In this document: piece after piece, positions 6,095 to 48,697 of the stretch
How the letters are laid out: each line of letters begins with the position of its first letter
Numbering within the stretch: the stretch's first letter is position 1
DNA from: a virus
Reading direction: 5' to 3' (one strand)
DNA length: 48,697 nt
Virus record (IMG/VR): IMGVR_UViG_3300045988_103716
Position numbers and translations under genes: made by a program
Notes under the pieces: model-generated
Database searches by the model: none
Told to the model about the DNA's origin: nothing
Seen by the model: only the letters and a program-made list of their open reading frames with translations

Positions 6095-6155
6095 ATGGTA
6101 TCACCTGTTTCATTTTGGTATAAGAAAGGGCCACTCGTTTGAGTGACCCAATTTT

Positions 6156-6488
6156 TTAAAATCCTGGAATAATGTCTTTTACATCCTTCAGGGTTTTCTT
6201 TACTTTTTGAAGCATAGAATTTTCAAATAGGTATTCAATACCTTTTGGAGTAATTAAAGCCTTGGTTAAATCTCCCCAGCAAATACCATCTTTTGTATTT
6301 TCTGGATCAATTCCAACAATATAGCCATCTCTTAACAGAGCTGCAATAATGTACTCCCAGTATGGCTCTGGTAACGAATATTGAGATGCCGTCAAAAAGG
6401 AACGTTCTGGTTTTTCGCCTTTTTTCAAGCAATCATATAAGTACTTAAGCACCTGATATACAATTACAAAATAATCATCTCTTGCCAT
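6156..6488 (-). CDS. YjcQ-family protein (copy 2)
   Basis: Likely start is the ATG at 6486-6488, after AAGGAGA. YQVLKYLYDCLKKGE...IIAALLRDGYIVG is paralogous to the upstream ORF. Confidence 0.6.
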   Translation of the reverse strand: MARDDYFVIVYQVLKYLYDCLKKGEKPERSFLTASQYSLPEPYWEYIIAALLRDGYIVGIDPENTKDGICWGDLTKALITPKGIEYLFENSMLQKVKKTLKDVKDIIPGF

Positions 6489-6504
6489 GACATATCTCCT
6501 TTTT

Positions 6505-6882
6505 CTATAGAATAACGCCCAGCAAAGAGGATAACACAACGTTAAAAGAATCTTTTACAAATTCAGACGCTTTTTTCATACCACTGTTTTCTTCCAAAAA
6601 GATAACACCTTCATAGGTAATCTTGAAAGGCGGATTTGTTTCGACATAGAATTTAACGTCTTTATACTTGTTTTCATATATCTTAAACCCTTTGATGTAG
6701 CCGTGGGCTACTAATGTAGAAATAACTTCCAACCAATAGCTTTTAGGAACATCAAACAGTTCCGAGCTATAAGAAAAGTCTTCTAGCCTTGCTTCTTTAC
6801 CAAGTTTCATACATTCATATAAATACTTTAAAATCTTGTACATCAATACCTGCATATCGTTACTAGCCATTTTTATTACCAT
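6505..6882 (-). CDS. YjcQ-family protein (copy 1)
   Basis: MYKILKYLYECMKLGK...VISTLVAHGYIKG has the YjcQ-like winged-helix pattern. The start could be 6882 or 6870. Confidence 0.6.
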   Translation of the reverse strand: MVIKMASNDMQVLMYKILKYLYECMKLGKEARLEDFSYSSELFDVPKSYWLEVISTLVAHGYIKGFKIYENKYKDVKFYVETNPPFKITYEGVIFLEENSGMKKASEFVKDSFNVVLSSLLGVIL

Positions 6883-7025
6883 GTCTTTCTTTACCTAGTT
6901 TTCATTCTCTTCAAGATCTTCTGGAATATCAGGCAAATCCGCAAATGACTGATCCGGTGATAATCCCAGCCACAATTTCAATTGTCTTTCTTGTTCTTCT
7001 TCAGACCCATCTAACACGTTAGTAT

Positions 7026-31023: not shown

Positions 31024-31128
31024 TACGGCTACTTAAAATGAGTATAATAGATGGGAACAGAAATGGTCACCTTTGACGGAGACTAGTAGACCTCCTTTCT
31101 ATTATTGGAAAGGAGGTTTTTACTTTAT
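31020..31128 (+). promoter_or_regulatory. Promoter-leader module A, copy 2: TTGATA-17-TATAAT promoter plus leader hairpin that sequesters the Abi SD
   Basis: TTGATA at 31020-31025 and TATAAT at 31043-31048. Perfect 10-bp stem ACCTCCTTTC (31090-31099) / GAAAGGAGGT (31108-31117), then T5, then ATG at 31127. Confidence 0.6.
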
Positions 31129-32110
31129 GCCACAGTACGATAAGCCCTTTAAGGATTACAACGAACTAATAGATTTGCTTGAAAAACGCAATGTTGAGAT
31201 ACTGGATAAGACTTTTGCTATAAATTGTCTACAACAGTTCTCCTACTACTCCCTCATCAATGGATACAAAGATTTATTCCCATCCGATGATACCGGTAAA
31301 TTTCTTATGCCTATTAGTTTCTATGATTTTTATATGCTTGCTACTTTTGATAGAGAACTAAATAATCTTTTCTTTAAATACATAATAATGATAGAGAGAA
31401 AATTAAAATCAGTTATTTCATACCGTATTTCTAGCCAATATGGTGTAGAAACGGACCTCAAAGATTTAACCTTCAACAATTCTGCGGATTATCTGTACGA
31501 AGGCTATTATCAAACAAGAAAAGAAACAAGAAATACACTTGAGGGCATCAAAAGAGATATAAGTAAAAGCAAGAATGAAAGTGTTAACCACTATTTAAAG
31601 AATCATAACCACCTTCCATGCTGGATACTTGTTAATGGCCTTTACTTTGGAAGAATTATTCAACTTTATAACATTCTATTAAAGAGAGATAAGGACTATG
31701 TTTGTGAAAAAATGCTTAGTAGTAATCTTTTAACGATGGATCAGAAAAAAGAATTTATTAAAAGCAGCTTAAATATCATACGAAAATATCGCAACAATAT
31801 AGCACATGGTAATAGAACTTTTACTAACAGAATTAAAGATGAACTGCCTAAAAAACAAGTTCTAATTCTTTCAAAAGGCGCCATAACAGATTCAGATTAT
31901 AAAAAAGGTTTTTGTAAAAATGATATTTTTGCAGTAATACTAATAATCTGCTCCTATGTAGACCCTATTCTTGCAAAATATTTCTTATCTGAAATAGAAA
32001 GGACCTTTAGACTTCTAGATGAGGCTGTATTCTCCACAGGCCAGGATATCTTTGACCTGTTATCTCTACCTAGGGATTTTTTAACGCGTTTAAGCAATTT
32101 TTCTGTTTAA
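31127..32110 (+). CDS. Abi_2 (AbiD/AbiF-like) abortive-infection protein with HEPN Rx4H motif
   Basis: N-terminus KPFKDYNELIDLLEKRNVEILDKTFAINCLQQFSYYSLINGY is typical of Abi-like proteins. IRKYRNNIAHGNR supplies R-x4-H. The ATG at 31127 is preferred over the track start at 31073. Confidence 0.75.
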   Translation: MPQYDKPFKDYNELIDLLEKRNVEILDKTFAINCLQQFSYYSLINGYKDLFPSDDTGKFLMPISFYDFYMLATFDRELNNLFFKYIIMIERKLKSVISYRISSQYGVETDLKDLTFNNSADYLYEGYYQTRKETRNTLEGIKRDISKSKNESVNHYLKNHNHLPCWILVNGLYFGRIIQLYNILLKRDKDYVCEKMLSSNLLTMDQKKEFIKSSLNIIRKYRNNIAHGNRTFTNRIKDELPKKQVLILSKGAITDSDYKKGFCKNDIFAVILIICSYVDPILAKYFLSEIERTFRLLDEAVFSTGQDIFDLLSLPRDFLTRLSNFSV

Positions 32111-32148
32111 ACAAAAAAAGATCCTTCACCGCGCCAACAGTGAAGGAT
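32098..32148. repeat. 3'-end module B, copy 2 (includes hairpin ATCCTTCAC/GTGAAGGAT)
   Basis: See copy 1. Read on the minus strand, the hairpin is followed by T7 (terminator-like for antisense transcription). Confidence 0.65.
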
Positions 32149-32267
32149 AGATCGATACAGTCTGCGCCAACAGAACTGCATCCGCATTGTAAAATTATGA
32201 CCTGCTAAAATCACCTTTTACAGTGCTCATTTTAACATATTTTAGAAAGGATGGAAACAGATTTATT

Positions 32268-33758
32268 ATGAGCGAATATATCATGTATCTTAGAAAAAGC
32301 AGACAGGATAATCCAGAAGAAACAGTGGAGGAGGTTCTTTTCCGGCATGAGATCCAGCTGCAGGAGTATGCCATGAAAAACTTCCATTACAGGATCAAGG
32401 AGGAAGACATCTATCGTGAGGTCGTCTCCGGCGAGACCATCGAAGACAGACCGGAAATGAAGAAGGTTCTGAAACTGATCGAGTCCAGCACAGTCAAAGG
32501 AGTTCTTGTGATCGAGCCACAGCGTCTTAGCCGTGGTGACATGCTCGACTGCGGTACGATTGTACATGTCTTCCGATACACCAACACTTTAGTTGTGACA
32601 CCACCCAAGACTTATGATCTGACTGAGAAGTATGACCGCAAGTTCTTTGAGATGGAGCTTTCACGTGGATCTGACTATCTGGAATATACCAAGGAGATCC
32701 TGAACCGTGGAAGAGTCTTGTCACGCAAGCAGGGAAACTATATCGGTTCTGTAGCGCCTTATGGCTACACCAAGATCAAGAACGGCAAGGAGCATTCTCT
32801 TGTGATCAACGAGGAGGAAGCTCAGTATGTGCGTATGGCCTATGATCTGTTCATCCAGGGCCATGGTTCTCATTATATTGCAGAACAGCTTGAGGCTATG
32901 GGTGCCAAGCCAAGAAAGGCAAAACACTTTACTCCGGCCAATATCCGTAAGATGTTACGCAATCCCGTGTATATCGGTCAGATCGTACTGAACCGAAGTC
33001 AGTCTGTGAAAGTGTATGAAGACGGATGTCTGAAGACTAAGCGTGTGTACAACCCTGATTATGAGACAGTACCAGGAAAACATGAGCCTATCATAAGCAA
33101 TGAAATCTTCGAACTGGCCAACAGTGAAGCCTGCAGAAAAGCTAGAGTTCCTTCTTCAAAGGAGATTCGTTTCATCTTTGCCGGACTCGCAAAATGTTCA
33201 GTCTGTGGTGGCTCGCTTGGTCTTAAGATCCATACTGGAAGAGAACATCCGTACCGTGTTGGGTGTCTGAAGAAGAAATACTGCACGAACACTTCAATTC
33301 TTTATGAAGACTTCATAGACCTTGTTGTAAATGCACTTAAAGAGCAGATACAAGACTTTGAAGTACAGATCGAGACAAATGTATACAAAGAGGCCTTTGA
33401 AACACAGAGCCTTTTAGAATCACTCACAAAACGTCTTGAAAAGACAGATGAGAAGATGGGGCAGTTGTGTCAGTATCTGGAAGAAGGAATGTATACTCCA
33501 GATATGTTCGTCAAACGCCGTGATACGCTCATCCAGGAGAAGGATGAACTTCAAAAAGCAGTCAAGGAAGCCAACAAGAAGATGTCTGGGATGAAGGATA
33601 TAAAAGAAAAGACTTCATCATTACATGAAGCCTTGAATTTGTTGCGTGATGACTCGATATCGCCACGCCTTAAAAACACGTTTCTCAAAAAGATTATCAA
33701 AGTGATATATTTTAGTAGAATCAATGATGAAATAGTCTTGAAAGTCGTCCTTAGATAG
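32268..33758 (+). CDS. int: Large serine recombinase (phage integrase)
   Basis: N-terminal resolvase-type domain (YLRKSRQD...VLVIEPQRLSRGD), recombinase domain, zinc-ribbon CSVCGGSLGLK...C and a C-terminal coiled coil. Confidence 0.85.
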   Translation: MSEYIMYLRKSRQDNPEETVEEVLFRHEIQLQEYAMKNFHYRIKEEDIYREVVSGETIEDRPEMKKVLKLIESSTVKGVLVIEPQRLSRGDMLDCGTIVHVFRYTNTLVVTPPKTYDLTEKYDRKFFEMELSRGSDYLEYTKEILNRGRVLSRKQGNYIGSVAPYGYTKIKNGKEHSLVINEEEAQYVRMAYDLFIQGHGSHYIAEQLEAMGAKPRKAKHFTPANIRKMLRNPVYIGQIVLNRSQSVKVYEDGCLKTKRVYNPDYETVPGKHEPIISNEIFELANSEACRKARVPSSKEIRFIFAGLAKCSVCGGSLGLKIHTGREHPYRVGCLKKKYCTNTSILYEDFIDLVVNALKEQIQDFEVQIETNVYKEAFETQSLLESLTKRLEKTDEKMGQLCQYLEEGMYTPDMFVKRRDTLIQEKDELQKAVKEANKKMSGMKDIKEKTSSLHEALNLLRDDSISPRLKNTFLKKIIKVIYFSRINDEIVLKVVLR

Positions 33759-35933: not shown

Positions 35934-36302
35934 TCATTGATATACCAGCTCACTCATTTCCAGAACACACTGTGTCAGCATGTCATTCTGGTCCTTTAGA
36001 TCCTGGATCTGTTCTTCCAGTGTCTTTGGTTTTGGATCTTCAGTAACTTTCGGCACATAGTCTAAATATTTTTCTGGATGAGCCTTTAGATTTTCTAGAT
36101 CCAGGTTTTCTTTCTTTTCACAGAACTCCGCATAATCATAGTAATAAACCGTATGCTTTACATTCTCTTCGTTGACGGACTCAGGATAGCTGATTTCTAC
36201 TTCTTCCTTTACTACTTCATTTAAATAAATGTAAACATAGATATTGTCATCAAATTCCTTGAGTTCTAAGTTCGGTTTCTGCTCGTAAAATCTTATATTC
36301 AT
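35934..36302 (-). CDS. Acidic hypothetical protein downstream of the RT
   Basis: Preferred start is the ATG at 36300-36302 (MNIRFYEQK...). Overlaps the RT 3' end by 53 nt. Not Avd-like, being acidic and not a basic helical bundle. Confidence 0.45.
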   Translation of the reverse strand: MNIRFYEQKPNLELKEFDDNIYVYIYLNEVVKEEVEISYPESVNEENVKHTVYYYDYAEFCEKKENLDLENLKAHPEKYLDYVPKVTEDPKPKTLEEQIQDLKDQNDMLTQCVLEMSELVYQ

Positions 36303-37380
36303 TTGAAACAACCTTTCTAGCTTTTCTGAACAAAGCATATAAACTGTTACCCTGCATAAATGATAAAGAATCTGAATGTTCCAGAATCCCTTTGAAGCTT
36401 AGAAGTCGTTTTGCCAACTTAAAACTCTTTGGTTTTCTCTTAAATCGAAAGCAGGCTCTTTTTATCTTTTTGAAAGTACCTCTTCTCACTGTGATATGGT
36501 CTCGATAGATACGATATCCCATCATATCGATAAAAGAGTCCTCTGTGATCTTAAAGCATCTCCAAGAGTCCTTTACGGCAAGTCCCATTTCTTTTAAGGC
36601 CTGAATAATCACCTGAGCCGCTAACATCAGATTTCTTGAATTGGATCCAAGAATAAGAATGTCATCCATGTAAAAAAGGGCATGCAACACTAGCATTACC
36701 CTTTTAATGGTTCCATCTTTTTTATGTCTTTCTCTGTATAGACGTTCCTTGATCATGTGATATAGATCAGATAGATACAGATTGCCTAGATACTGTGATA
36801 AATAGCTTCCTATGCTTAGTCCTTTCTTGAATGTATTTACCAGGGTCTCAACAAGCCATAATAAAGGCTCATTTTTAACATGTTTTCTAAGCCAGGCCAT
36901 CAGTTTTTCACGTGGTATAGACTCATAGTATTTACGGATATCAAATTTACAGGCGTACTGAACTTCATATTTTCCGTTTACTTTCTTTCTGAGCCATCTT
37001 TGAATAGCATAGGCACCGTACAATTGTCCTCGTTTAGGTATACTTGCACATTGATAGGTTCCAATTCTTTTGATCAATTCTTTCAGACCTTCTACTGCAA
37101 TGTAGTCGTACATTTGTTGCTTGATATCCTGTATTCCTATGGTTCTCATCTTCTGTGATCCTGAGTCATACTTATTCTTGTACCATATTGGTAACAGTTC
37201 TAAATTTCTATTTAGCAATTCATTTTGTAAAGCAAGACTGATATTCTCAATATTTCCATACTGTTCAAAAATACGTTTTATATCGTATCTGTCTTTACTT
37301 TTGCCTTTAAGGCATTTACATACTGATTTTTGAATTAAATCAATATTTGTAATATCAACGTCCTTACACAATCGTTTCAT
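36250..37380 (-). CDS. DGR-type reverse transcriptase
   Basis: Motifs KFDIRKYYESI (A), GLSIGSYLSQYLGNLYLSDL (DGR-specific IGxxxSQ) and LFYMDDILILG (YMDD). GGAGGTG RBS. Confidence 0.9.
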   Translation of the reverse strand: MKRLCKDVDITNIDLIQKSVCKCLKGKSKDRYDIKRIFEQYGNIENISLALQNELLNRNLELLPIWYKNKYDSGSQKMRTIGIQDIKQQMYDYIAVEGLKELIKRIGTYQCASIPKRGQLYGAYAIQRWLRKKVNGKYEVQYACKFDIRKYYESIPREKLMAWLRKHVKNEPLLWLVETLVNTFKKGLSIGSYLSQYLGNLYLSDLYHMIKERLYRERHKKDGTIKRVMLVLHALFYMDDILILGSNSRNLMLAAQVIIQALKEMGLAVKDSWRCFKITEDSFIDMMGYRIYRDHITVRRGTFKKIKRACFRFKRKPKSFKLAKRLLSFKGILEHSDSLSFMQGNSLYALFRKARKVVSNEYKILRAETELRTQGI

Positions 37381-37488
37381 AATACACCTCCGATTGCTGT
37401 ATAAATAGGTTTTCTGCTTTATGCCTACTAGCCTATGTTTCTTTAATACAAATTTTACGTCACGAAATCCTCGTCAACGTTAGCCTTT

Positions 37489-37512
37489 AAAAAGGGCTCC
37501 TTCTAGAGGAGC
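37489..37512 (-). other. Terminator-like hairpin in the TR-RT spacer
   Basis: Minus strand reads GCTCCT-ctaga-AGGAGC, then CC, then TTTTT. Confidence 0.5.
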
Positions 37513-37553
37513 GAAACATGGTTTAGTGTTTAAATATTTGTTTTATGCAATAT

Positions 37554-37648
37554 GCCGCGAGATAGTTCCACCTGGTATTCGAAAGGCCGTTCCTGCAATT
37601 CAGGTAAGAAAGACCAGCATTACCGGCATTCCTGAGATTACCGCCCAT
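37554..37648 (-). repeat. DGR template repeat (TR)
   Basis: The core 37558-37648 aligns with 37762-37852 at 77/91 positions. All 14 mismatches are at plus-strand T (coding-strand A) of this copy. In the VR frame it encodes eight AAY Asn codons. Confidence 0.9.
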
Positions 37649-37706
37649 GGGAACCACCTACCATGAGTCCTGTATAATTATTTACTATGAGATTACAATT
37701 CTTTGG

Positions 37707-37729
37707 CTAAGGGGGCGAGCCCCCCTTAG
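37707..37729 (-). promoter_or_regulatory. GC-rich hairpin/cruciform downstream of VR
   Basis: ctaaggggg-cgagc-cccccttag: 9-bp perfect stem and 5-nt loop, 22 nt past the target stop codon. No U-tract follows. Confidence 0.6.
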
Positions 37730-37750
37730 AATCCCCCGATTGAAACAAAA

Positions 37751-39307
37751 TCAATCGGCCACGAGAAAGTCCCACCAGGCAATCGAAAGGCCGCCCCTGC
37801 AATCCAGGCAAGAAAGACCAGCACCACCGGCATCCCCGAGATAACCGCCCATAAGGTATTCTCTGAATCCACTTGTTTGAGATCCTCCAGCCCAGCACAT
37901 ATCACCAATTCCCTGTGCTTCTCCTGATCCCTTTGCAGAAGGGTACCATACACCTTCTGGGTGAGCTACATCGCCAATCCAGAAGTCAGATCCGTTCTTG
38001 CCAGGATTTGGAATTATTCCTACTTTCTTATAAGTATTCTTTATTGTTGTTTCATCTGTAGTATGATCCGTTCCTCTTGGTGCATAGTAAACATCTTTAG
38101 AGCTGTCTGCATTGAAGAACATTACTGTATCACTGGCTACCTGATAGCCACCTACGTGATATTCAATTCCTTGGATACGATATGGATGGGCAGAGTCTGT
38201 ATTTGATACAGGTGAGCCATCGTGATGACCTATTACAGCATCTGTAGCCCCTGCTCTGTAGTGCATACTCGTTAAGTACACAGAATTTCCACTTACGGGA
38301 GCTGTTGCGAAGGCCTCACAGTCTAAGTAAACACCGTAAGTTGTGTCGTTTATTTTTTCTACCTTTGTTACAAGTACGTCATCTGCGTATGCATGCAATG
38401 TGCTTACACTTCTATCTAGATTCGATGCTGCTGCATAACCAACAGATGCATAAGATCCAACTTTCACTTTATCTTTGTCTGCTACACTAACAGGGAAGTA
38501 TTTATGTTTATCTGCAGATTCCACGGTTGCCTTTAACTGAACACTGTAGTTCGTACACCCACCAAACACTTTCTGCACATTCTTTTGTGCATGCTTGATA
38601 GCCAAGAAGATCTGTGCAAAGGTCATACGGTTTGATCCAGCGCCCCAGTATCCTTTTCCCTTTTTCTGATAATTCGTAATCATATTTGAATAAGACTGGT
38701 CTCTTGCCGGCTTCAGGCCTGGCTGAGATCTCAACAGTCCATCAGAGGCAATTCCGCTAAAGAAACGCGACTGTACAAAGTAAGGCATCACCGTTCCATC
38801 TGCACGCTTTGCCATGCACCATGGTTGTAATCCTAAAGCATGGTTTGGCGAGTCTGAAATCAATAACTCTGTATAAGCTTCCGTTTCAATCTCTTTATAA
38901 TAGAAAGTCATCTGTAGGGATCCACAGTCAACGGATCCAGTCTCCTGATAAGCTCCATCACCTAGCATTGCTGTAGGATAGGCAAAACCGTCATCATATC
39001 TTTTATAGTTGCATTCATACCATTGGAATAGTGGAATATCTGCATAGTCATCTTTACCTTCAACTGTATCTGTACTAGGCTGACAGACAAGTCCAGTGTT
39101 ATCTCTAGTCTTTTCACAAGCACTGGTTGGGTTTGAAGCAAACTTCCAGATTTTCGTTCCATAGACCTTTCCATTTCTTATAGACGAGAAAAGTTTGTCA
39201 AAGTACTCTGCAGAATATTTTTCATAGCCTGGAACCACTGCTTCTAGAGCACTGGCTACACGTTGAAGCGTAGCCTCTGTGGCAATTCTTTTATTCATTT
39301 CTGACAT
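37751..39307 (-). CDS. DGR target protein: tail fibre / receptor-binding protein with C-terminal variable (C-type-lectin-like) region
   Basis: 518 aa, the last gene of the tail module. The VR covers the last ~33 codons (...MGGYLGDAGGAGLSCLDCRGGLSIAWWDFLVAD). Confidence 0.8.
   Translation of the reverse strand: MSEMNKRIATEATLQRVASALEAVVPGYEKYSAEYFDKLFSSIRNGKVYGTKIWKFASNPTSACEKTRDNTGLVCQPSTDTVEGKDDYADIPLFQWYECNYKRYDDGFAYPTAMLGDGAYQETGSVDCGSLQMTFYYKEIETEAYTELLISDSPNHALGLQPWCMAKRADGTVMPYFVQSRFFSGIASDGLLRSQPGLKPARDQSYSNMITNYQKKGKGYWGAGSNRMTFAQIFLAIKHAQKNVQKVFGGCTNYSVQLKATVESADKHKYFPVSVADKDKVKVGSYASVGYAAASNLDRSVSTLHAYADDVLVTKVEKINDTTYGVYLDCEAFATAPVSGNSVYLTSMHYRAGATDAVIGHHDGSPVSNTDSAHPYRIQGIEYHVGGYQVASDTVMFFNADSSKDVYYAPRGTDHTTDETTIKNTYKKVGIIPNPGKNGSDFWIGDVAHPEGVWYPSAKGSGEAQGIGDMCWAGGSQTSGFREYLMGGYLGDAGGAGLSCLDCRGGLSIAWWDFLVAD
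37758..37852 (-). repeat. DGR variable repeat (VR)
   Basis: See TR. The 3' end (CTCGTGGCCGAT) differs from the TR (CTCGCGGCATAT) at non-A positions, as expected for IMH versus IMH*. Confidence 0.9.
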
Positions 39308-40203
39308 AGATATCCTCCTTCATCAACATAAAGACCTAAGCTGTCAAAGGCCTCTAATTTCTGATATATATCTTCCTTGTTTTTAAAATCTGCAAGCGAC
39401 TTTGCAGCTGCAGTCTCACTAGCCTTGGCCTTGGTAGCGGATGCCGCTGAAGCATCTGCACTATTCTTAGAACTAGTTGCGCTAGTAGCCGAAGCTCCGG
39501 CAGAGTTGCTTGCATTCTTAGCTGAGTTAGAAGCAGAAGTTGCCGAGTTCGCTGCGTTAGTGGCTGAAGTACTTGCTCCTTTTGCAGAACTACTAGCAGA
39601 AGAAGCAGAAGCAGAAGCCGCACTTGCGCTAGATTTAGCTTGATCAGCAGACGTCTTAGCAGCTTTCTCACTGTTAGCCGATGCCGTTACTGCTTCATTT
39701 ATCTTTAACAAAAGATTTGTGATAGTCTCATCTGTTTGTTCGTCTACGTGAGTTTCATCAGGTTCAATTCCTTTTGGAACTGTATGTGTTGATCGTACTG
39801 TATTCCAGTCTGTCTTTTTAAAGCCACTTACTTCATTCTTTGAACGTACACAGACTAGGAGATTGACATCACCTGCATACAGGAACACTTTTGAGGACGG
39901 CTTCCAGTCGAAGTAACAATAACCATCCTGTACCTTTTTATTAAGTGCTACATCGTATCCTTTTTCCTGATTTGCGTTTAAATAGTTGATTTGGATTTCC
40001 TGTTCGCTTAGCTTAATAGCATCCGTGACATTGTCAACAAATTTAAAATGAATCAATCTAGAATCCTGATCGCCGCTGACACCTAGAAAAAAGTTTTCAT
40101 TTGGAAATATCAACTTACGTGTATCTGGATCTATAGTTACATAGCCTTCATCTTCATTCTCAAGAGCCTGTGTACTTAGATTTTCATTTAGAGTTAACTC
40201 CAT
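39295..40203 (-). CDS. Tail/baseplate-associated structural protein with Ser/Ala-rich low-complexity linker
   Basis: 302 aa. The N-terminal beta-rich domain is faintly BppU-like. The central ~90 aa are SAASASASSASSSAKGASTSATNAANSATSASNSAKNASNS... Confidence 0.4.
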   Translation of the reverse strand: MELTLNENLSTQALENEDEGYVTIDPDTRKLIFPNENFFLGVSGDQDSRLIHFKFVDNVTDAIKLSEQEIQINYLNANQEKGYDVALNKKVQDGYCYFDWKPSSKVFLYAGDVNLLVCVRSKNEVSGFKKTDWNTVRSTHTVPKGIEPDETHVDEQTDETITNLLLKINEAVTASANSEKAAKTSADQAKSSASAASASASSASSSAKGASTSATNAANSATSASNSAKNASNSAGASATSATSSKNSADASAASATKAKASETAAAKSLADFKNKEDIYQKLEAFDSLGLYVDEGGYLCQK

Positions 40204-40495: not shown

Positions 40496-42178
40496 CTAAT
40501 CAATACGCTTATAGGCATATACAGTTTCACTAAACATATTTGTTGATCCTATTAATTGCCAAGAACCAGCTAAAGAATACGGAGGAAACCATACAGCTAT
40601 ATCATTTGTATTCGTTGTTAATATCACTGTACCGATAGGATATATCTCATCCCATATTCCTTTATCATAGAACTGTCCGTTGGAATAAATGTTATTGGTG
40701 AAATTTACAATACCACTAAATTCAACGTCCATGTGTACATCTATCTGTTCATCTTTATTTGTGCATGGACCACCAAAAGATAAGGAGTGCCCATTTGCCC
40801 CAAACTCAATCAAGGCGTATGAAACAGGAACTTCGATTTCCCGTGTATACGTAGTAAAATAATCCGAAATAATCAGCCTGAATTTAAAGCTTTTGTTCTT
40901 GTCATACACTACAGCAGGAATATATTTGGCACAATTTGCGTATGGATCTGACGCGGTTACATCATATGAACCTTTTTCGTAATCTGAATAATCAATCAAT
41001 CTTTTCCATGATTTACTTGAGTCCTCATATTGCTGGATTTCAAAAGAGGCTGTGTTTTTATTGTTTACAGGCGAAACCTTGTAAGCAAATTTAAATAGCA
41101 CGTTTTCTCCATCATCTGTCAGTTCCAGCGCTTCGTTCACTCGATAGGCTTTACAACCAGGTAGATCCGGACTCGAATATGGATATATCTGAACGGCTTT
41201 AGTTGCTGTAGCACTACGCCCTCTTGAATCTTGAACAGTAATATCTACTGTCAATTTGCCTGAAACGTCAATTATTCCAGTGCTTACACTCGTTCCTTGA
41301 TAGGTGTTTCCATTAAACAATATAGAACAGGAACTAATGGAAGATCCTGACACTCCTGAGCAATCCGTCTTGATTTTTAACGCAGATTTATGCTGCACAA
41401 AACATTTAAATTTGTCAGCTAACCCCGCCGTAATTTCAGTTATTGAAACGTCCGATATACTAGGCACATAGCTATCTGGTATAACCGCGGTTAAGCTAAC
41501 ACTCTTATCACCACCGACTTGGGTATTGCCATTGTATGTCTTACAGACAATATAAACGGCTCCTTCAGTACTAGTGGTAATGGATTCTGCTAAACTAGTA
41601 GGTAAAGTCCATATGGCTGTAGACTTTCCCTTTACAAAATCATCTATATGTACTAGATCCTTATTGTTTAGACTGTAATACAGCTTATGTGAAAAATCAG
41701 AGCTATATGGCTCCATAGTGATTGAAACATTTTCGCCTATGTTTACTCTAGGTTTAGAAAGTGTAGGTATAGTTTCTCCACGTGTACCATATGCAAAGCT
41801 TGCCGATTGCACAGATGACTGTCGGCCCGAATTTCCATCGTTGAAATACATGTATACACTTATATTCAGATTACCAGCACCATCATCAACGTTAACCTTA
41901 AACGAGCTACCTGAAACGTAATACCAGGTTCCAGCGTTGTGTGTGCTAGCGCCAAAGGTAGCCGAGTATCTTGATGATCCATCAACAGTTATATAGCAAT
42001 CAACGGCAGCATAGGCACCACCAGGAGAGCGGTAACCCCAATAAGGAGTAACTGTAGCGTAGGTATCACCATAATTACGAGTTACAGTAATCTTACACCA
42101 ACCTTGATTGGAAACAGTCCAGCCACTTCCATATGTATTCCATACAGGTATATTTATTTCTTTAGCTGTACTTGACAT
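40496..42178 (-). CDS. Tail/baseplate protein (possibly DUF859-like)
   Basis: 560-aa beta-rich protein following Tal. Confidence 0.4.
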   Translation of the reverse strand: MSSTAKEINIPVWNTYGSGWTVSNQGWCKITVTRNYGDTYATVTPYWGYRSPGGAYAAVDCYITVDGSSRYSATFGASTHNAGTWYYVSGSSFKVNVDDGAGNLNISVYMYFNDGNSGRQSSVQSASFAYGTRGETIPTLSKPRVNIGENVSITMEPYSSDFSHKLYYSLNNKDLVHIDDFVKGKSTAIWTLPTSLAESITTSTEGAVYIVCKTYNGNTQVGGDKSVSLTAVIPDSYVPSISDVSITEITAGLADKFKCFVQHKSALKIKTDCSGVSGSSISSCSILFNGNTYQGTSVSTGIIDVSGKLTVDITVQDSRGRSATATKAVQIYPYSSPDLPGCKAYRVNEALELTDDGENVLFKFAYKVSPVNNKNTASFEIQQYEDSSKSWKRLIDYSDYEKGSYDVTASDPYANCAKYIPAVVYDKNKSFKFRLIISDYFTTYTREIEVPVSYALIEFGANGHSLSFGGPCTNKDEQIDVHMDVEFSGIVNFTNNIYSNGQFYDKGIWDEIYPIGTVILTTNTNDIAVWFPPYSLAGSWQLIGSTNMFSETVYAYKRID

Positions 42179-44874
42179 TAGTTACCACCCACTTTCTTAA
42201 AATCAAGAGAACCGTTAGGCCTTGGACTGAATTCAAAATTGCCAATACGCAAAGTGCTATTAAATTGGCCATCATTTACATACAACTTATTATTTGAGAA
42301 ATAAGCTACCTCGGCACCTCCCTGAACAAATGATAGTCTGTCATTCTTTTCAATCAATTGAATAGGGTTACCTTCGACTCCAATGTAAATATTTCCATCG
42401 ATAAATCGAATATATTTATGAATCTCATTAAAAGATGCAATATTCTGCTTTTTTGATGCCTCAAAGTCCGTTTTAAAATTCGCAAACTCAATGTTGACCG
42501 AATTTTTTGTCTGTTCTAGCTTAGTTGAGATTTCGCCAAACTGTGAGTCTAGGTTTTCTTTATCATAGTATTTTTCCCATATCTCAGTTCGAAGAGCATC
42601 ATTTTCTTTGCTGATCCGTGAATCTGTAATCCTTACTGCGTTATCAATACATGCAAGTGCCTCTGCATACACTTTTTTAGATGCATCATAGTCACTGGAT
42701 AACTGTACAAGACCATAGCTAAAAGAAAGATTGACAAAAAGTGTACAGTCTACATAGTAAAGGTTGTCCGTGTTTCCTAAAGTGTACTCGGGCTCAGTAC
42801 GACTCCATACAGTATCTGATGGAGGATATGAAGTTGGTACTTCTGGTCTATCCGGGCCTAAATGATAAAAGCGATAGATTCCTTGGATATCCGTAACGGA
42901 AGCTAAAGATATCGTATCACTGCCAAGTATTTCATTTTTAGCGTTAATAACCTGTACTGAGTAATTTGTATTCAATACTGAATCTGATTCTGAAACGCTT
43001 AAAATTAAATCTGATCCAGTCTGCCGAGTGTCATTTTTAAACCACTGAACAGTTCCCAGATTCTTTACTTCAGAGCTTGTCAGCTTTTTAGAGCCTCTTC
43101 TGACTTCAAGAGTCAAAATTGTTTTTATGGATTTGTTCTTGAAAATCTGACCCTGCGAAGATAGCAGCTTAAAACTTAAAGCAGCTTCTCCTGCAACCCC
43201 ATCTTTTCCGTCCTTACCGTTCGTTCCATTGGCGCCATTATGCGAAACAGAATAGGTCTCTGTACTAGAGCCATCACTATAGAAAACCTTGGTACAGACC
43301 CATAGATATTTTCCTAAAGGCACAACTGGAAATTCAGTCTGCCATCCTGTTATAGGCTTATCCTGTGCTGAATCTGTGACTGCATATGTGACGATCGTTT
43401 TCTTGATATAGACGCTAGTACCATTCTGTACTTTGGTTACTGTCAGCTCATGGCTAGCTTTCACTACACCTTTGTCGTTAACAGCTTCAACATGGTATAT
43501 CAAACTTGGATTCAAGCTTGATTTCTCAACGTTGATTGAGTTAGCCGTTGATACAAGTTCTCCATCTAGGTACCAGTTTATTTTGAACTGATCCGTGATA
43601 TCTTTGCCGTTGTCTTTTACAAGAGCTACAAGAACTGTACGTTCTGTATCTTCATTTAAAACAGTGCCATTTGAACTACTGACAACTAACTGATATGTTT
43701 TGTTCTGTTCAATCAGTCGATTCATTTTGTCAATCAATTCATTTGAAATTCCTGAAGCCATTTCTGTGAAATTATCAAAAGTTGTCTTGCATCTGTCTCT
43801 ATCAGTAAAGCTGATCTCCTGTTCTACGACTCGAGCCTGCAGATACATAGTCGGCGTATATTCAGTATCCTCAATCGTAAATGTATCTCCTATATTTGCA
43901 TCAATGTAGGCATCTACATCATATGTGACAATAGGGTTAACGTGCTTCTTTAGCTCAGCTAGTGCCTGGCCATATAAAGTATTCACATTCTTTGTTTCGT
44001 AGGACCATATCTCTACGGCATACATATCATTACTGTGATCCGTTAAAAGAGTCGATGGAAACCGGTCCCTAGCCTGAGGTGCTAGAAGATTATTACCGCT
44101 GACCATGTACTCAACATTGCCATTTGCATCGTATTCTTTTTTTCCATTTAATGATGTTAACTGCAATCCATCTGTGCCAGTTGGCCGAATACCTGTATAA
44201 AGTTCAGTAATATCACTGGTTTTTACAATTGAATGGATGTCATTAGGATATCTTAAAATAGTTCCTGTACGATTTGATCCAAGGCCTTGATTCGAACCGG
44301 AATGTTTACGATAAACGTTCAGAGTTACGCCCTTTAATGAATAGTCATCGTTCAATTCTGTAATGAACTCAAGTTCTGCATCAAAAACATTGGCCAATGA
44401 ATAGAGGCGGCTCAAAACGGTGGCCGTACCCTCCCAATCATGACGAATTGACTTGTTAGATACCTCATTGATTCGAACTGTAAAGGAGCGTTCAAAGCCC
44501 CAGGCCTTAATATACTCAACAAAGCTCATGGCCCTTGGCGACTTATAAGCATCGATCTGTTCGTTTGTTAGTTCTAAACTTAACCCATAAGCTTCGACCA
44601 TTACAGTCTTTCTTGATTTTTCAACGTTCATAATCGTCAAGTGATACCCTTTATCCTTGTACTTGAAAGACAACTTATTTCCTTCAACAAGATATTTAGC
44701 ATCTTCGTGCGCTGTGAGTGTTTTAAAACCAAAAGTATATGCAGATCCACTTAAATATGTATGTAACGTATCACTCCAGTATGGCATCGCCTTATCAACA
44801 TCATTATCAAGATGTGCAAGAACTGTACCATATGGATCCAATACTGCGATTCTGACTTTTTGTAATACCGTCAT
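42178..44874 (-). CDS. Tail-associated (Tal-type, prophage tail endopeptidase family) protein
   Basis: 898 aa directly after Dit. Contains a short collagen-like run GANGTNGKDGKDGVAGEA. Confidence 0.65.
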   Translation of the reverse strand: MTVLQKVRIAVLDPYGTVLAHLDNDVDKAMPYWSDTLHTYLSGSAYTFGFKTLTAHEDAKYLVEGNKLSFKYKDKGYHLTIMNVEKSRKTVMVEAYGLSLELTNEQIDAYKSPRAMSFVEYIKAWGFERSFTVRINEVSNKSIRHDWEGTATVLSRLYSLANVFDAELEFITELNDDYSLKGVTLNVYRKHSGSNQGLGSNRTGTILRYPNDIHSIVKTSDITELYTGIRPTGTDGLQLTSLNGKKEYDANGNVEYMVSGNNLLAPQARDRFPSTLLTDHSNDMYAVEIWSYETKNVNTLYGQALAELKKHVNPIVTYDVDAYIDANIGDTFTIEDTEYTPTMYLQARVVEQEISFTDRDRCKTTFDNFTEMASGISNELIDKMNRLIEQNKTYQLVVSSSNGTVLNEDTERTVLVALVKDNGKDITDQFKINWYLDGELVSTANSINVEKSSLNPSLIYHVEAVNDKGVVKASHELTVTKVQNGTSVYIKKTIVTYAVTDSAQDKPITGWQTEFPVVPLGKYLWVCTKVFYSDGSSTETYSVSHNGANGTNGKDGKDGVAGEAALSFKLLSSQGQIFKNKSIKTILTLEVRRGSKKLTSSEVKNLGTVQWFKNDTRQTGSDLILSVSESDSVLNTNYSVQVINAKNEILGSDTISLASVTDIQGIYRFYHLGPDRPEVPTSYPPSDTVWSRTEPEYTLGNTDNLYYVDCTLFVNLSFSYGLVQLSSDYDASKKVYAEALACIDNAVRITDSRISKENDALRTEIWEKYYDKENLDSQFGEISTKLEQTKNSVNIEFANFKTDFEASKKQNIASFNEIHKYIRFIDGNIYIGVEGNPIQLIEKNDRLSFVQGGAEVAYFSNNKLYVNDGQFNSTLRIGNFEFSPRPNGSLDFKKVGGN

Positions 44875-46403
44875 AGCCAGGCCTCCCGAATACGAACAGT
44901 CACATCAGGTTGTTTCCTGCAGAAATCAGAAACATGAAATTTGATATCTGTTTCTCCTGGAGGAACTTTAAAATACTGAGTTCCTACAACTTCATCACCC
45001 GGTCTGTCCATTCCGTTTACATATACATGCGATGTTTCCCCATCAATATTGATTACTGTGCCTGCTGGATATCTGTTAGGAACATCTCTCCATTTGCTGA
45101 CATGCTGTTTATAGAAGTTGATCACATTAAAGCCAGCGAAAGTCATAAACTGATTTCCTGCTCGGTTTCCCCACTGCTTAACAGCAACCTGTATCTTCAC
45201 ACATTTCATATCTGCAATTTCTGGGATCGTGTAGTTATAATAACCACCCCAGTAGAAGAAACGTATATTTGCGCCTTCCTTTAAGATGTCACAGTGGCCC
45301 CAGTCCCAGTACCAAGGATTTTGGGTATGCAGATGAGACGTTGTATAGCTCCAGTTTCTCAACACCTTGCCATTAGCCCATATTTCATAATGACCTGTAT
45401 TTCCAACCGCATCTGTCTTATACCAGTTACATCCGCAGATAAGTTTGTTGTCTGCTGTTAAGAAGTTGATACACATCTCTCCTGTTTGGCCCATCAGACC
45501 TGCATAGAATAATAGGTGAAAATAGCAGTAGAAGTTTTTAGATCCACTAGTGTCTCCGTTTGAGTCTGCTGGCAATACAAGAGTTCTTAGGCCACCATTA
45601 GCAGAGCCTTTTTTATTTCCTGTACTACCAAAGCCTAAGAATCTATTGTTAAACCATGTATGCGCAAATAAGGCGCCATTTGCGCCATATTGTGGATGCA
45701 TAACGTCCGTACCGTTTGTATCATCCTTACAGTTAAAAAAGCTGTCTAAGGAAGCAAGTTGCTCATTCTGTTCATATGTTTCTGTATCCAATTCTTCGAT
45801 TTTACCGTATTGCATGACACCTTCAGACGATACTATTCCAACGTACCCTGTTTCTGCAGTGCAGTTAATCTGATAGTCAACAGTTGCAGGTAAAGTTCCT
45901 TCATTCTTTACAGTCACTGAGCCTGAGGACGTTGTAAACTCCTTCAGGGCTGTACTGTACTTTCTTGGATCAGAACAATAAATTTCAATTTCTCCAATAA
46001 CACAATTAGAGCCGGCATCAACTTCTGTGTTTGATAGCTTGGTACCAATAAAGTACTTATCTAATTCGTCATTGAAAATGATCTGAACCTGTTCTTTATT
46101 GAGTAAAGAGTTCAGTTTGTTATAAGCCTGTCTATAGTCATAATTGCTATCTGCTTGTAGCAGGTACTTTACTGTTATGGTTCTAGGCTTAAGTCTTTTA
46201 GAGTTATAAATAGTTCCATCCATTCCATCAACCTCGGTCTCAAGAACTTCAGATCCTAACAGCTCTCTACCACTCACTGAGAGTGTTCGATAGCCTTTTA
46301 TTTCGTTTTCAATAAAAACACCATCATAGCACATTGCCTCGGCCGGCAAATCTGCACCGGCCTGAGGTTTTGTGTCTATTGTGTCCACAAAGTTATAGAG
46401 CAT
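44871..46403 (-). CDS. Distal tail protein (Dit), extended form
   Basis: 510 aa directly after the tape measure gene. The N-terminal region resembles siphovirus tail-component proteins. Confidence 0.65.
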   Translation of the reverse strand: MLYNFVDTIDTKPQAGADLPAEAMCYDGVFIENEIKGYRTLSVSGRELLGSEVLETEVDGMDGTIYNSKRLKPRTITVKYLLQADSNYDYRQAYNKLNSLLNKEQVQIIFNDELDKYFIGTKLSNTEVDAGSNCVIGEIEIYCSDPRKYSTALKEFTTSSGSVTVKNEGTLPATVDYQINCTAETGYVGIVSSEGVMQYGKIEELDTETYEQNEQLASLDSFFNCKDDTNGTDVMHPQYGANGALFAHTWFNNRFLGFGSTGNKKGSANGGLRTLVLPADSNGDTSGSKNFYCYFHLLFYAGLMGQTGEMCINFLTADNKLICGCNWYKTDAVGNTGHYEIWANGKVLRNWSYTTSHLHTQNPWYWDWGHCDILKEGANIRFFYWGGYYNYTIPEIADMKCVKIQVAVKQWGNRAGNQFMTFAGFNVINFYKQHVSKWRDVPNRYPAGTVINIDGETSHVYVNGMDRPGDEVVGTQYFKVPPGETDIKFHVSDFCRKQPDVTVRIREAWL

Positions 46404-48697
46404 TATTTAACACCTCTCAATGTTTTATTAAATTTCTGTGATCTAGCAAGTTCTGCCTGGTCATACTTAGCAGTTGCTCTCGCCATTTCACGACCATCTA
46501 TTTCTAAAGGCACCTCAATGATGTATTCACCGCTCATTGAGTACGTATAGTCACTATTCAAGGATGTCGTCATTCCTGAATAAGATAAGTTCGGTTGTAG
46601 CATATTTGGCATATACAAGATGTCTGAAGCAACTTCTTTGACCTTTGTCTTCATAGCCTTCATACCATTGACTAATCCTTGTGCCCACCATAGACCATTC
46701 TTATACTGAACTTTAGAAGGTGAGCCAATCTTAGCTTTGGCCTGGATTGCCGCATCGGCTGCAGCAGCCAAACTAGCGGCCGCCGCTCTGACTGAACCTT
46801 CGCTTGCTCTTAAGCCGTTCGCAAGCCCCATACCAATCATCTGACCACAATACTGTGCTCTAGACTGACAGGCATTGAATGCACTGATAATGCTATTGCA
46901 TGACGATCTTGCAACAGACACGCCCTTTGATAAGCTTCCTTTAAGTCCTGATGTAAACTTAGTACCCATTGCAGTTCCTGAAGTCGAAGCCCTAGCTTCA
47001 GCTGCAGACATTGCACTGATAATGCTATTCAATGAGCTCGTCACCGTAGCCGACGTACTGGCAAATGTAGTACCTACCATACTGATAGCCGTTACAAGGG
47101 CCATCATCTGAGTACCCGCACTACCAATTCCAACAGAAGCTGCAGATATAGCTCCTATACCAGCTGCAACTGCCGCTAAGCTAGCTCCCATATCCAATAG
47201 ATTTAATCCTGTAATAATCTGAATGCCTTTAGCTAATTCCTTGAACCCTTTACCTGCATTCAAAGCAGCCGTACCAATAGAATCAATAACACCTGATACA
47301 GACTGTAGTACTCCTGAGACTGCTTCTCCAAATGCAGTAATAATTCCTGATATTCCGTTGAATACCGTTGCAATAATGCTTCCAAATGACTCTATTGTGC
47401 TACAGATACCTTCAAAGACTGTCTGAATCACTGGTCCTAACGCAGTCACAACAGTAGCTACACCGTTCAGAATCATCTGCAATCCTTCACCCTGCGAACC
47501 TGCTAAGGCAAACGCAGCACCAACTGCAAGAGCGGCCGCGGCAATACCTAACCATGTTGTTGGTGGAATCATAGCCAAGGCCTCACCAAGTCCTCTGAAG
47601 ATAGTCGCAATACCGGTACCAATACCTTGTGCTGCTGTTGAAATAGCACTACCTAAGGATGTCACAATACCTGAAATAGCGGTTCCTAGAGTTTCAATTA
47701 CTAAGGAAATTCCTTGAGTGATACTGTCAAGAATGCCTGAAACAGCCGTACCAATACCTTCAATACTTGTCTTGATCGTATTGCCAACAGATTCAACCAC
47801 TTTAGCGATGCCCTCATACTTGGCCTTGATCTTGTCAATTCCGCCTGTATTTGGAACACTGCCCCCAGATTCATCTGAATCGTCTTTCTTCTTTTTGAAA
47901 AGATTCTTTAATGGATCCAGGCTCTTTGTGCTTGCAGAGTCCTTGATAGCACTTATAAGATTTTTTACATTGCTAACAGCATCTTTAGCATTAGCGCCGG
48001 CATTCTTAGCTGCACTTCCAAAGTTCTTCAGATGTGATATTCCGCTTTGTATTGCCTTGTAGCCTTTAAAGGCTAGGAATAATCCAGTAACGGCCTTAAA
48101 GGCAGTCTGAATAGTTCCTGGATCCAGTGCACTTACAAACTCGGCAATCTTTTTAACAACATCGGCAATATTCTTTACAACTTTACCGAAAGCATCTGCC
48201 AAGCTTTCAATCACACCACTTTGAGCGCAGGCATCCATTACGTGAAGTACTGCATCCTTAACAGCACTTAAGGCAGACGCACAAGCCTGTATAGCTCCAG
48301 TATCTCTGAATTTCTCCCAGACACCTTTCAAGGCTTTTGCCATGTCAGAGAAAACCTGTTTTACCTGATTACAAGTATTGGTAATTCCATTGATATCAAT
48401 TAGACTTGAAAACTGACTTGCGATTTCTCCAGCAAAATAAGAAGCTGTACCAACAATTTGACCAAAGATATTTGCAATAGTTTCTAAAAGCATAGAGTTT
48501 GCCAAGGCATCCCCTATTTTATTAAAGGCCTGACCAAACTTGTCTAATGCTTTCTTCGCTTCTTGAATAGCGCCGGTATCCTTAAATGCATTCATTGCAC
48601 TTCTTACTTTTGTCTTCATAGTGTTGATTGCACTCATAAAGTCCTGTAGGATAGCAGGCTTGAATGCATAGTCGATACCGTCCTTAGTTTCCATAAA
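46403..48697 (-). CDS. Tail tape measure protein, 3' part (joins 1-910; the whole gene is 3,150 nt, ~1,049 aa)
   Basis: Long helical, Gly/Ala-rich protein. The frame is open to the window edge. The M at 48694 is internal, not the true start. Confidence 0.85.
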   Translation of the reverse strand, partial: FMETKDGIDYAFKPAILQDFMSAINTMKTKVRSAMNAFKDTGAIQEAKKALDKFGQAFNKIGDALANSMLLETIANIFGQIVGTASYFAGEIASQFSSLIDINGITNTCNQVKQVFSDMAKALKGVWEKFRDTGAIQACASALSAVKDAVLHVMDACAQSGVIESLADAFGKVVKNIADVVKKIAEFVSALDPGTIQTAFKAVTGLFLAFKGYKAIQSGISHLKNFGSAAKNAGANAKDAVSNVKNLISAIKDSASTKSLDPLKNLFKKKKDDSDESGGSVPNTGGIDKIKAKYEGIAKVVESVGNTIKTSIEGIGTAVSGILDSITQGISLVIETLGTAISGIVTSLGSAISTAAQGIGTGIATIFRGLGEALAMIPPTTWLGIAAAALAVGAAFALAGSQGEGLQMILNGVATVVTALGPVIQTVFEGICSTIESFGSIIATVFNGISGIITAFGEAVSGVLQSVSGVIDSIGTAALNAGKGFKELAKGIQIITGLNLLDMGASLAAVAAGIGAISAASVGIGSAGTQMMALVTAISMVGTTFASTSATVTSSLNSIISAMSAAEARASTSGTAMGTKFTSGLKGSLSKGVSVARSSCNSIISAFNACQSRAQYCGQMIGMGLANGLRASEGSVRAAAASLAAAADAAIQAKAKIGSPSKVQYKNGLWWAQGLVNGMKAMKTKVKEVASDILYMPNMLQPNLSYSGMTTSLNSDYTYSMSGEYIIEVPLEIDGREMARATAKYDQAELARSQKFNKTLRGVK
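48643..48697. repeat. Terminal direct repeat (identical to 1-55)
   Basis: Exact 55-nt identity. Confidence 0.95.

Follow-up and report, generated by a model that had tools for sequence, protein, structure and literature searches.

The 48,697-nt stretch of viral DNA analysed here (the window) carries on its minus strand a cassette that is very probably a diversity-generating retroelement (DGR) of a functional type, free of accessory genes and belonging to a temperate siphovirus of gut Lachnospiraceae. The cassette is arranged in the order target-VR-TR-RT, comprises two genes on 3.1 kb and would act by the mechanism outlined below. An earlier note on this DNA had proposed a DGR diversifying the C-terminus of the last protein of the tail module. 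This proposal is supported by A-restricted differences between the repeats, the signature of the reverse transcriptase (RT), variation at A sites in related phages and TR polymorphisms that are mirrored in the VRs. Altogether, the cassette is a well-supported but ordinary further example of a known DGR system. The following features were assigned, the last of which lies outside the DGR:

37751-39307, minus strand: target gene, encoding a tail-fibre-like variable protein of 518 aa, in which the VR encodes residues 486-516
37762-37852, minus strand: VR core, 91 nt, found as a pair with the TR by repeat search and alignment; the homology to the TR runs on to 37752
37752-37765, minus strand: IMH-like 3' end of the VR, CTCGTGGCCGATTG, overlapping the last codons and the stop codon of the target gene
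37736-37758, minus strand: hairpin 1 at the 3' boundary of the VR, CCGATTGA-TTTTGTT-TCAATCGG, predicted in both MFE and centroid fold
37707-37729, minus strand: hairpin 2, CTAAGGGGG-GCTCG-CCCCCTTAG, G+C-rich and without a T tract, from fold prediction
37558-37648, minus strand: TR core, 91 nt with 21 adenines, encoding MGGNLRNAGNAGLSYLNCRNGLSNTRWNYL in the frame of the VR
37548-37561, minus strand: IMH*-like 3' end of the TR, CTCGCGGCATATTG
37381-37547, minus strand: spacer RNA between TR and RT, 167 nt, with a covariation-supported structure
36250-37380, minus strand: DGR reverse transcriptase, 376 aa, pI 9.9, with matches to RVT_1 and phrog_1423 and the motifs IGSYLSQ and FYMDD
35934-36338, minus strand: acidic phage protein outside the DGR, 134 aa, overlapping the 3' end of the RT gene by 89 nt

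TR and VR, which are offset by 204 nt, differ at 14 positions over 91 nt in the recomputed alignment. All 14 mismatches are a plus-strand T in the TR, i.e. an A on the coding strand, and lead to ten A>G and four A>T changes from TR to VR, while the 70 non-adenine positions of the core are identical (70/70). These values reproduce the alignment described earlier. If 14 mismatches were placed randomly on the 91 sites, all of them would hit the 21 A sites with a probability of 1.1e-11. An independent repeat search recovered the same pair as a repeat family (D1) of 101 nt with 83% identity. No additional VR was found on either strand of the 48,697-nt window in a scan with the TR that tolerated changes at A. 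The open reading frames of the target (518 aa) and the RT (376 aa) are present as previously described, and the VR lies inside the protein-coding gene of the former (codons 486-516). The number of AAY codons for Asn in the TR, given before as eight, is seven (residues 489, 492, 495, 502, 505, 509 and 513); seven other codons of the TR also contain A.

The restriction of the diversity to A sites extends to related genomes. Among eight phages of approximately 95% identity (the window and seven close relatives), 21 of the 22 A-templated VR positions vary, compared to six of the 69 others (Fisher P 2.7e-14). Three of these six follow TR polymorphisms at 37626, 37616 and 37610, i.e. three non-A polymorphisms of the TR are mirrored in the cognate VRs. 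The TR itself is near-invariant in six of the seven close relatives. In 21 near-identical target proteins (at least 90% identity), hypervariability is limited to codons containing A, and the AAY-templated residues are occupied by 6 to 10 different amino acids. A-only VR/TR pairs were found in about 40 of 56 related IMG/VR loci. Pooled over the related loci, mismatches were counted at 706 of 1067 A sites versus 254 of 3433 non-A sites.

A conventional duplication of the 3' end of the gene, located beside an unrelated RT of a group II intron, retron or defence system and with a merely coincidental A bias, is effectively refuted by the A-only related loci and by the variation in the eight genomes and 21 proteins, and we assign next to no probability to it. 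The A-only pattern, with its chance of ~1e-11, recurs in about 40 independent loci, the population variation is limited to A sites, and Rfam gave no match on the cassette region, including no intron or retron RNA. The RT does show weak matches to group II intron (TIGR04416), retron and Drt models, on which a duplication beside such an enzyme could draw, but these remain far under the curated cut-offs (51 and 33 bits, where 300 and 235 bits, respectively, are required). With the RT models of PADLOC, scores did not exceed 61 bits.

The RT matched RVT_1 (4.9e-15) and phrog_1423 (3.9e-62), and its best PDB chain was the bRT of Bordetella (8ub7, 1.3e-10). Apart from a weak match to 8bgj, an RNA-directed DNA polymerase (E 3.6e-4), no other PDB chain matched the RT at E <= 0.01. 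The signature of DGR RTs is [I/V/L]GxxxSQ and not QGxxxSP, and R74 and I181 of bRT are two residues promoting adenine mutagenesis (PMC7826257). In the window RT, the motifs IGSYLSQ and YMDD, both noted earlier, are present and align with IGSLTSQ and YMDD of bRT, and R74 and I181 align to identical residues. More than 1100 homologues of the RT were found. Its relatives in the phage database were those of BPP-1, Hankyphage p00, crAssphage LMMB, ANMV-1 and FP_Epona, which are known DGR carriers. Judged by its sequence, the RT is nearer to known DGR RTs than to those of group II introns, retrons or defence systems; with bRT as the best PDB match and all non-DGR models far below their cut-offs, its earlier assignment is borne out by profile and similarity searches.

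No avd gene was found in the 48.7-kb genome: no ORF fits into the gap between VR and TR, and 33 small ORFs gave no Avd-like match in Pfam. Avd, one of four recognised classes of DGR accessory genes (avd, HRDC, MSL and CH1), occurs with about 74% of DGRs rather than universally, but it is essential in the only well-studied DGR system. Since about 29% of DGRs carry no accessory gene (Wu et al., PMC5758913), the missing avd is compatible with membership in the DGRs. The earlier description of the DGR as complete has to be qualified, since an avd gene is not part of it; this matches the known accessory-free target-TR-RT architecture (PMC5758913 and PMC7290462) and is not a defect. The 134-aa ORF overlapping the RT gene was rejected as an accessory gene, because its homologues are located directly after the target homologue in six relatives without DGR. 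This protein has no significant family match (a weak match to mSLOG, E 0.004, is under the cut-off) and no similarity to the ORF following the RT in Lactobacillus phage LBR48. In sister lineages, a free-standing RNase H gene is inserted between VR and TR.

The 3' ends of VR and TR (CTCGTGGCCGATTG and CTCGCGGCATATTG, respectively) differ at non-A positions, which confirms the IMH/IMH*-like ends described before. By analogy with BPP-1, the VR end may function as an IMH. Hairpin 1 is missing at the TR. It is retained in close relatives, while distant relatives have structured elements at the same place. The stem of hairpin 2 is conserved among the relatives and its loop is variable or inverted. 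Within the VR 3' end, the T at 37761 is private to the window; all seven close relatives have a C at this position, as does the TR. This private C>T change inside the IMH-like GC stretch could weaken target recognition, and it would fit a recently inactivated DGR, the VR of which was diversified in ancestors of the phage while the copy in the window is no longer able to home. Loss or decay does occur in the family, with six relatives devoid of TR and RT and one locus (L006) with a corrupted, A-mutagenised TR that may be an assembly chimera, and the TR of the window is short of one adenine compared to most relatives (AGC to GCC). Still, such an inactivation appears quite improbable, given the intact RT ORF, which shares 98% identity with a cluster of 629 members, and the 21 adenines retained by the TR. 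Moreover, the VR equals the TR at the 70 non-A positions, including a window-specific TR change at 37626 that is also found in the VR at 37830, and homing therefore happened after the TR of the window had diverged.

Between TR and RT, the RNA structure is conserved. The 3' end of the TR (37562-37568) pairs with positions 37513-37519 of the spacer, followed by a hairpin (37496-37512) and a stem (ATAGG/CCTAT, 37405-37436); a conserved CAATCG and a ribosome binding site precede the start of the RT gene. With RNAalifold, 37 pairs were obtained for the spacer structure from 10 family members, 17 of which show compensatory changes. In this structure, 95% of the cells are paired, compared to 35-46% in slid controls, and the observed pairing values were reached by none of 500 shuffles. 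A promoter scan of the minus strand upstream of the TR gave no site above threshold. A candidate spotted by eye (TTGTAA-16-TATACA) agreed at 8 of 12 positions only and was not relied upon.

The target is encoded by the final gene of the structural module, flanked by the tail module and the lysis cassette. Genes for a Tal-like 'host specificity' protein of 898 aa, a DUF859 tail protein and a fibre-like protein of 302 aa are located upstream. The target matched phrog_17147 (5.9e-80), whereas neither the whole protein nor its C-terminus had a match in Pfam or NCBIfam, and no match in the PDB was obtained by phmmer or profile search. AF2 models were made for the full-length protein (pTM 0.75) and for residues 372-518. 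The target model matches BFVD proteins designated 'tail collar fiber' and 'receptor binding complex', including those of crAss-like phages, while Foldseek against the PDB returned nothing at E < 0.1 with either model. A C-type lectin fold was undetected in the target by Pfam, PDB sequence and profile searches and Foldseek-PDB, the VR residues being modelled at very low confidence (pLDDT about 27-34). A comparison by hhalign with the tail-collar fibre protein (T-CFP) of crAss phages, which is classed in the literature as CLec3, was marginal (E 0.09). Homologues of the target are abundant in metagenomes (>2500), some of which carry BppU_N or collagen at the N-terminus. At the nucleotide level, GenBank phages yielded just two short matches, and the closest deposited phages are unannotated faecal contigs, to which the target is 50% and the RT 43% identical.

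Gene position and the modelled structural likeness to tail-collar fibre proteins suggest a receptor-binding role of the target, and on the same grounds its diversification may switch the tropism of the phage. Alternatively, the DGR might be active on an accessory virion adhesin that binds mucus, glycans or other ligands not belonging to the host; diversification would therefore not switch host tropism. We consider this unlikely, although separate Tal-like, DUF859 and fibre-like proteins are encoded upstream and no family of receptor-binding domains is recognisable in the target. For a different DGR-target family, the tentaclin paper (PMC10743442) considers that intestinal or immune cells might be bound, an idea that is carried over here as a possibility only. 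The gene position, the matches of the model to tail-collar fibre and receptor-binding-complex proteins and the homologues fused to segments of the BppU_N baseplate or collagen-like fibre type argue for a host receptor-binding protein instead. In addition, a receptor-binding fibre is the target in BPP-1, the only phage DGR that has been studied experimentally.

With an active DGR targeting a tail fibre-like protein as the preferred reading, the TR would be transcribed together with the 167-nt structured spacer and reverse-transcribed by the RT, which would copy C, G and U faithfully and misincorporate opposite A. [quoted passage not shown] As many as 14 codons would be randomised, including the seven AAY codons, with a diversity ceiling for the last 33 residues of about 4e12 DNA or 9e11 peptide variants. 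Most likely, the virion would thereby acquire a different specificity for ligands or receptors. As to cDNA synthesis, the priming site, homing and independence from Avd, this scheme is an inference. Tentatively, the cassette might even represent a minimal DGR in the strict sense, working without Avd, with RT and TR-spacer RNA being enough for adenine-mutagenic homing; the RNase H of the sister lineages would then be an accessory protein of a fifth type, and the VR scaffold might not be a recognisable CLec or Ig fold. This more far-reaching proposal is possible rather than probable.

Phage tail-fibre DGRs are a standard example of programmed hypervariation and are common in gut viromes. One further case leaves the field unchanged, and its value is practical. 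The compact two-gene cassette without Avd is located in a complete temperate phage of Lachnospiraceae, and the large surrounding family holds natural DGR-plus, DGR-minus and RNase-H-containing variants, which therefore form a good comparative set. Two questions could be addressed with it, namely the priming and homing of DGRs lacking Avd and the ligand of the diversified fibre on Gram-positive gut hosts. On 'Avd-independent' DGRs, the literature search retrieved only the 2017 survey (PMC5758913).

The cassette of BPP-1 has the order mtd-avd-TR-brt. It shares with the window adenine-specific differences between TR and VR at the C-terminus of a tail-fibre protein and an RT with [I/V/L]GxxxSQ and YMDD in which the equivalents of R74 and I181 are conserved. 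In both, the IMH-like ends are GC-rich, a hairpin lies downstream of the VR, and the TR is followed by a structured spacer RNA. In contrast to BPP-1, the window genome is without avd, the gap between VR and TR is only about 100 nt long, the target shows no recognisable likeness to Mtd or CLec, and the spacer RNA sequences are unrelated. Hankyphage p00 of Bacteroides and other DGRs of gut phages (Benler 2018/2021, PMC8008677) are likewise found in temperate phages, act on a tail-associated protein and were likewise proven by A-restricted variation among near-identical genomes. Hankyphage p00 differs in its host phylum and target family, and its RT is ~31% identical to that of the window (E 1e-14). 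The target-TR-RT order without accessory genes is shared with lineage 3 and architecture A1 of Wu et al. (2017); by pairwise values only, the RT is 30% identical (E 5e-20) to that of crAssphage LMMB, a member of lineage 3, and 25% identical (E 9e-9) to that of BPP-1. The DGR of crAssphage LMMB (Morozova et al. 2020, PMC7290462) has the same layout, target-VR(IMH)-TR(IMH*)-RT, and no avd. Its target is also a protein of the tail-collar-fibre type of ~500 aa that ends the structural module and carries a C-terminal VR of ~35 aa. By BLASTP, the two targets are not significantly similar (E 5.2), while tail fibre proteins of crAss-like phages are among the Foldseek matches of the window target model. 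The phages themselves differ, crAssphage LMMB being a Crassvirales phage of Bacteroides and the window a temperate siphovirus of Lachnospiraceae.

The reading of the cassette as a diversity-generating retroelement (DGR), proposed in the earlier note, is upheld by the anatomy of its template repeat (TR) and variable repeat (VR), by its reverse transcriptase (RT) and by variation among related genomes; the support is close to the maximum that sequence data allow. When the alignment was recomputed, the TR (37558-37648) and the VR (37762-37852) matched over 91 nt without gaps at an offset of 204. All of the 14 mismatches (14/14) are located at coding-strand adenines of the TR (10 A>G and 4 A>T), of which there are 21, while the non-adenine positions are identical in both copies (70/70), all as described before. 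With random placement, the probability of all 14 mismatches landing on the 21 adenine sites is 1.1e-11. Family D1 of an independent repeat search is the identical pair, and no further VR-like copy was found in the window with a TR scan that tolerated changes at A. The AAY codons of the TR, previously counted as eight, number seven. The theoretical repertoire comprises 4.4e12 DNA sequences or 8.9e11 peptide sequences. At the VR 3' end, the T at 37761 is private to the window, C being present in 7/7 close relatives and in the TR; this C>T change (A516V) lies inside the IMH-like GC stretch and could alter homing efficiency.

Every gene of the DGR region is encoded on the minus strand. In transcription order, the features are:

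46403-48694, minus strand: tape measure, tail module
44871-46403, minus strand: Dit, tail module, after the tape measure
42178-44874, minus strand: Tal-like protein, tail module, after Dit
40496-42178, minus strand: DUF859 tail protein, tail module, after the Tal-like protein
minus strand, between the DUF859 tail protein and the 302-aa fibre-like protein: 93-aa ORF
minus strand, before the target: 302-aa fibre-like protein
37751-39307, minus strand: target, 518 aa, the last 33 codons being the VR
37736-37758 and 37707-37729, minus strand: two hairpins between VR and TR
minus strand, between the hairpins and the RT: TR, then a 167-nt spacer
36250-37380, minus strand: RT, 376 aa, after the spacer
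minus strand, in order after the RT: acidic 134-aa ORF, CD1375-like ORF, r1t-type holin, endolysin

The remaining genes of the window encode the small and large terminase, an SPP1-type portal and a family A DNA polymerase, as well as VapE-like and SNF2 proteins, CI-type repressors, a serine recombinase and Abi_2/AbiD. Taken as a whole, the window represents a temperate siphovirus in its entirety. The tail assembly chaperone (1298-1687) is located at one window end and the tape measure, which has its start codon within 3 nt of the window end, at the other; this indicates a circularly permuted complete genome. Only two GTDB genomes matched, both Lachnospiraceae MAGs (Lachnoclostridium and Cottocaccamicrobium, 48-54% identity); deposited phage genomes include no representative of this temperate phage of Lachnospiraceae. 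In the 302-aa protein, only a long low-complexity stretch rich in Ala and Ser (39354-39671) matches PHROG tail-fibre families, and this stretch gives rise to spurious ORFs on both strands. At 31073-33758 (plus strand), the Abi_2/AbiD-like abortive-infection gene (Pfam 1.8e-35, PADLOC AbiD 5.3e-42) adjoins the large serine recombinase and is probably a prophage-encoded defence moron. A 400-aa protein (3703-4905) occupies the position expected for the major capsid protein and is a candidate for it; its C-terminal S-layer SbsC-type domain (PF18316, 1.6e-11) may serve for capsid-surface display.

The RT matches RVT_1 and PHROG 1423 (3.9e-62). Two PDB chains matched at E <= 0.01, the Bordetella DGR RT (bRT, 8ub7; E 1.3e-10) being clearly the best and the other, 8bgj (E 3.6e-4), being named merely 'RNA-directed DNA polymerase'. 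In the 8ub7 alignment, both motifs reported earlier were recovered, IGSYLSQ pairing with IGSLTSQ of bRT and YMDD with YMDD. Residues R74 and I181 of bRT, which were shown to promote adenine mutagenesis (PMC7826257), are identical in the window RT. Against the curated RT models of group II introns, retrons and Drt systems, the scores remained far below the cut-offs; the PADLOC RT models gave generic domain hits only. The GenBank phage relatives of the RT carry DGRs (Lactobacillus LBR48, Butyrivibrio Arawn and Idris, crAssphage LMMB, Hankyphage p00, FP_Epona, ANMV-1 and BPP-1), and assignment to the DGR-type RTs is supported by these comparisons.

Variation was followed in 56 related IMG/VR loci retrieved with the target protein. 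A strict scan (60 nt or more without gaps, every difference between the two copies being at an A of the downstream one) revealed a VR-then-TR pair with 9-23 A-only mismatches in about 40 of the 56; the loci without a pair are mostly contigs ending near the gene end. In a looser 100-nt window including the diverged ends, pooled mismatches amounted to 706/1067 at A sites compared to 254/3433 at non-A sites. Among the window and seven loci that share about 95% identity with it across 3.4 kb, VR variation was A-restricted as predicted, with 21/22 A-templated positions polymorphic versus 6/69 others (Fisher P 2.7e-14). Three of the six non-A exceptions (37830, 37820 and 37814) match non-adenine polymorphisms of the cognate TR (37626, 37616 and 37610), which argues that TR changes were copied into the VRs after phage divergence; these mirrored polymorphisms, the window's own TR variant included, are direct evidence for TR-to-VR information flow. 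For 21 distinct proteins of at least 90% identity from a 734-member cluster, 6-10 residue types were found at each of the seven AAY positions, 2-4 at AGG, TAC, ACC and TAT codons and one at A-free codons, with a mean of 1.2 per column in the other 485 residues outside the VR. The TR of L006, a locus about 94% identical to the window, lies at 5660-5755 (equivalent to 37558-37648) and departs from the TR consensus at 16 positions. Adenine is the consensus base at 15 of these, which all fall within the 5' two-thirds of the TR; seven adenines are left, and this TR mismatches its own VR at nine non-A sites. It looks as if this template was itself A-mutagenised, via self-homing or VR-to-TR conversion, the alternative being an assembly chimera.

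An RNA alignment of ten family members, spanning the region from the 3' end of the TR to the start of the RT, yielded a consensus structure with 37 pairs; compensatory changes occur in 17 of these. In an independent count, 95% of cells were paired, falling to 35-46% with slid partners, and the observed covariation was reached by 0/500 shuffles. In the window, the structure consists of:

37562-37568 with 37513-37519, minus strand: TR 3'-end helix
37496-37512, minus strand: 6-bp hairpin immediately after this helix
37405-37436, minus strand: ATAGG/CCTAT stem, then conserved CAATCG, then the RBS

Deletions have removed from the window two helices that distant relatives possess. The probable role of this RNA, by comparison with the Bordetella spacer, is to position the priming site. 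Hairpins 1 and 2 follow the VR and have no counterpart after the TR, and distant relatives have equivalent structured elements after the VR. Hairpin 1 begins within the IMH-like CTCGTGGCCGATTG. Hairpin 2 (37707-37729) is G+C-rich; its stem is conserved throughout close relatives, with a loop of GCTCG in the window, CGAGC (the reverse complement) in L007, CTCGC in L003 and CTTG in L002, L004 and L005, which suggests structural selection or cruciform loop flipping. Rfam gave no match for the region.

The accessory gene avd is absent, the VR-TR gap being about 100 nt and none of the 33 small ORFs of the genome matching an Avd-like family. This layout is a known accessory-free architecture, accounting for about 29% of DGRs in Wu et al. 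(PMC5758913), who separately remark on the absence of avd in lineage 3 (PMC5758913). The 134-aa ORF was rejected as an accessory gene, since its homologue directly follows the target homologue in six relatives lacking TR and RT. In these (L026, L031, L048, L050, L052 and L053), neither was found within 4 kb downstream of the target homologue, and the homologue of this window ORF (35934-36338) lies directly 3' of it; the TR-RT unit thus has the character of an indel flanked by two conserved phage genes. The ORF and the 3' end of the RT share 89 nt (36250-36338), or 53 nt if translation starts at an internal ATG (36302), which has a better RBS; the RT overlap is similar in relatives, e.g. L028. 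Sister lineages harbor a free-standing RNase H gene (150-169 aa; PF00075, E 5.9e-12) between VR and TR, widening the spacing to about 740 nt (L028 at 5687-6196, L013, L017, L018, L020-L024, L027-L030, L049, L054 and L056); the window has no such gene, and the four accessory classes of Wu et al. 2017 (PMC5758913) do not include RNase H. In L023, a GIY-YIG endonuclease gene (6121-7188, PF01541) separates the RNase H gene from the TR, and with this insertion the spacing is about 1830 nt (L017, L018, L023, L024, L029, L030 and L056).

A C-type lectin fold of the target had been proposed for structure prediction; the prediction was run, placed the VR at pLDDT ~27 and did not confirm the fold, nor was it supported by family, PDB sequence/profile or structure-model searches. 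The full target model matches BFVD tail collar fibre and receptor-binding complex annotations, including those of crAss-like phages; the distant matches reach E values as low as 1e-9. In a marginal profile alignment with the LMMB fibre, REYLxGGxLxxGSxAG is paired with RMLLLGGRAHSGSRAG. A receptor-binding role is a reasonable inference, and tropism switching would follow from it with the same reservation.

This type of DGR is already known, and the example is unsurprising to a specialist. It is of modest interest because the design is minimal, lacking Avd and having a spacer RNA that covaries, and, further, for the natural variants within the family (DGR-plus, DGR-minus and with RNase H) and an unclassified target scaffold. 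In design, the element is closest to Avd-less crAss-like and lineage-3 DGRs; crAssphage LMMB has a TG-VR-TR-RT layout on its tail-collar fibre protein (PMC7290462), and the order in the window is identical.
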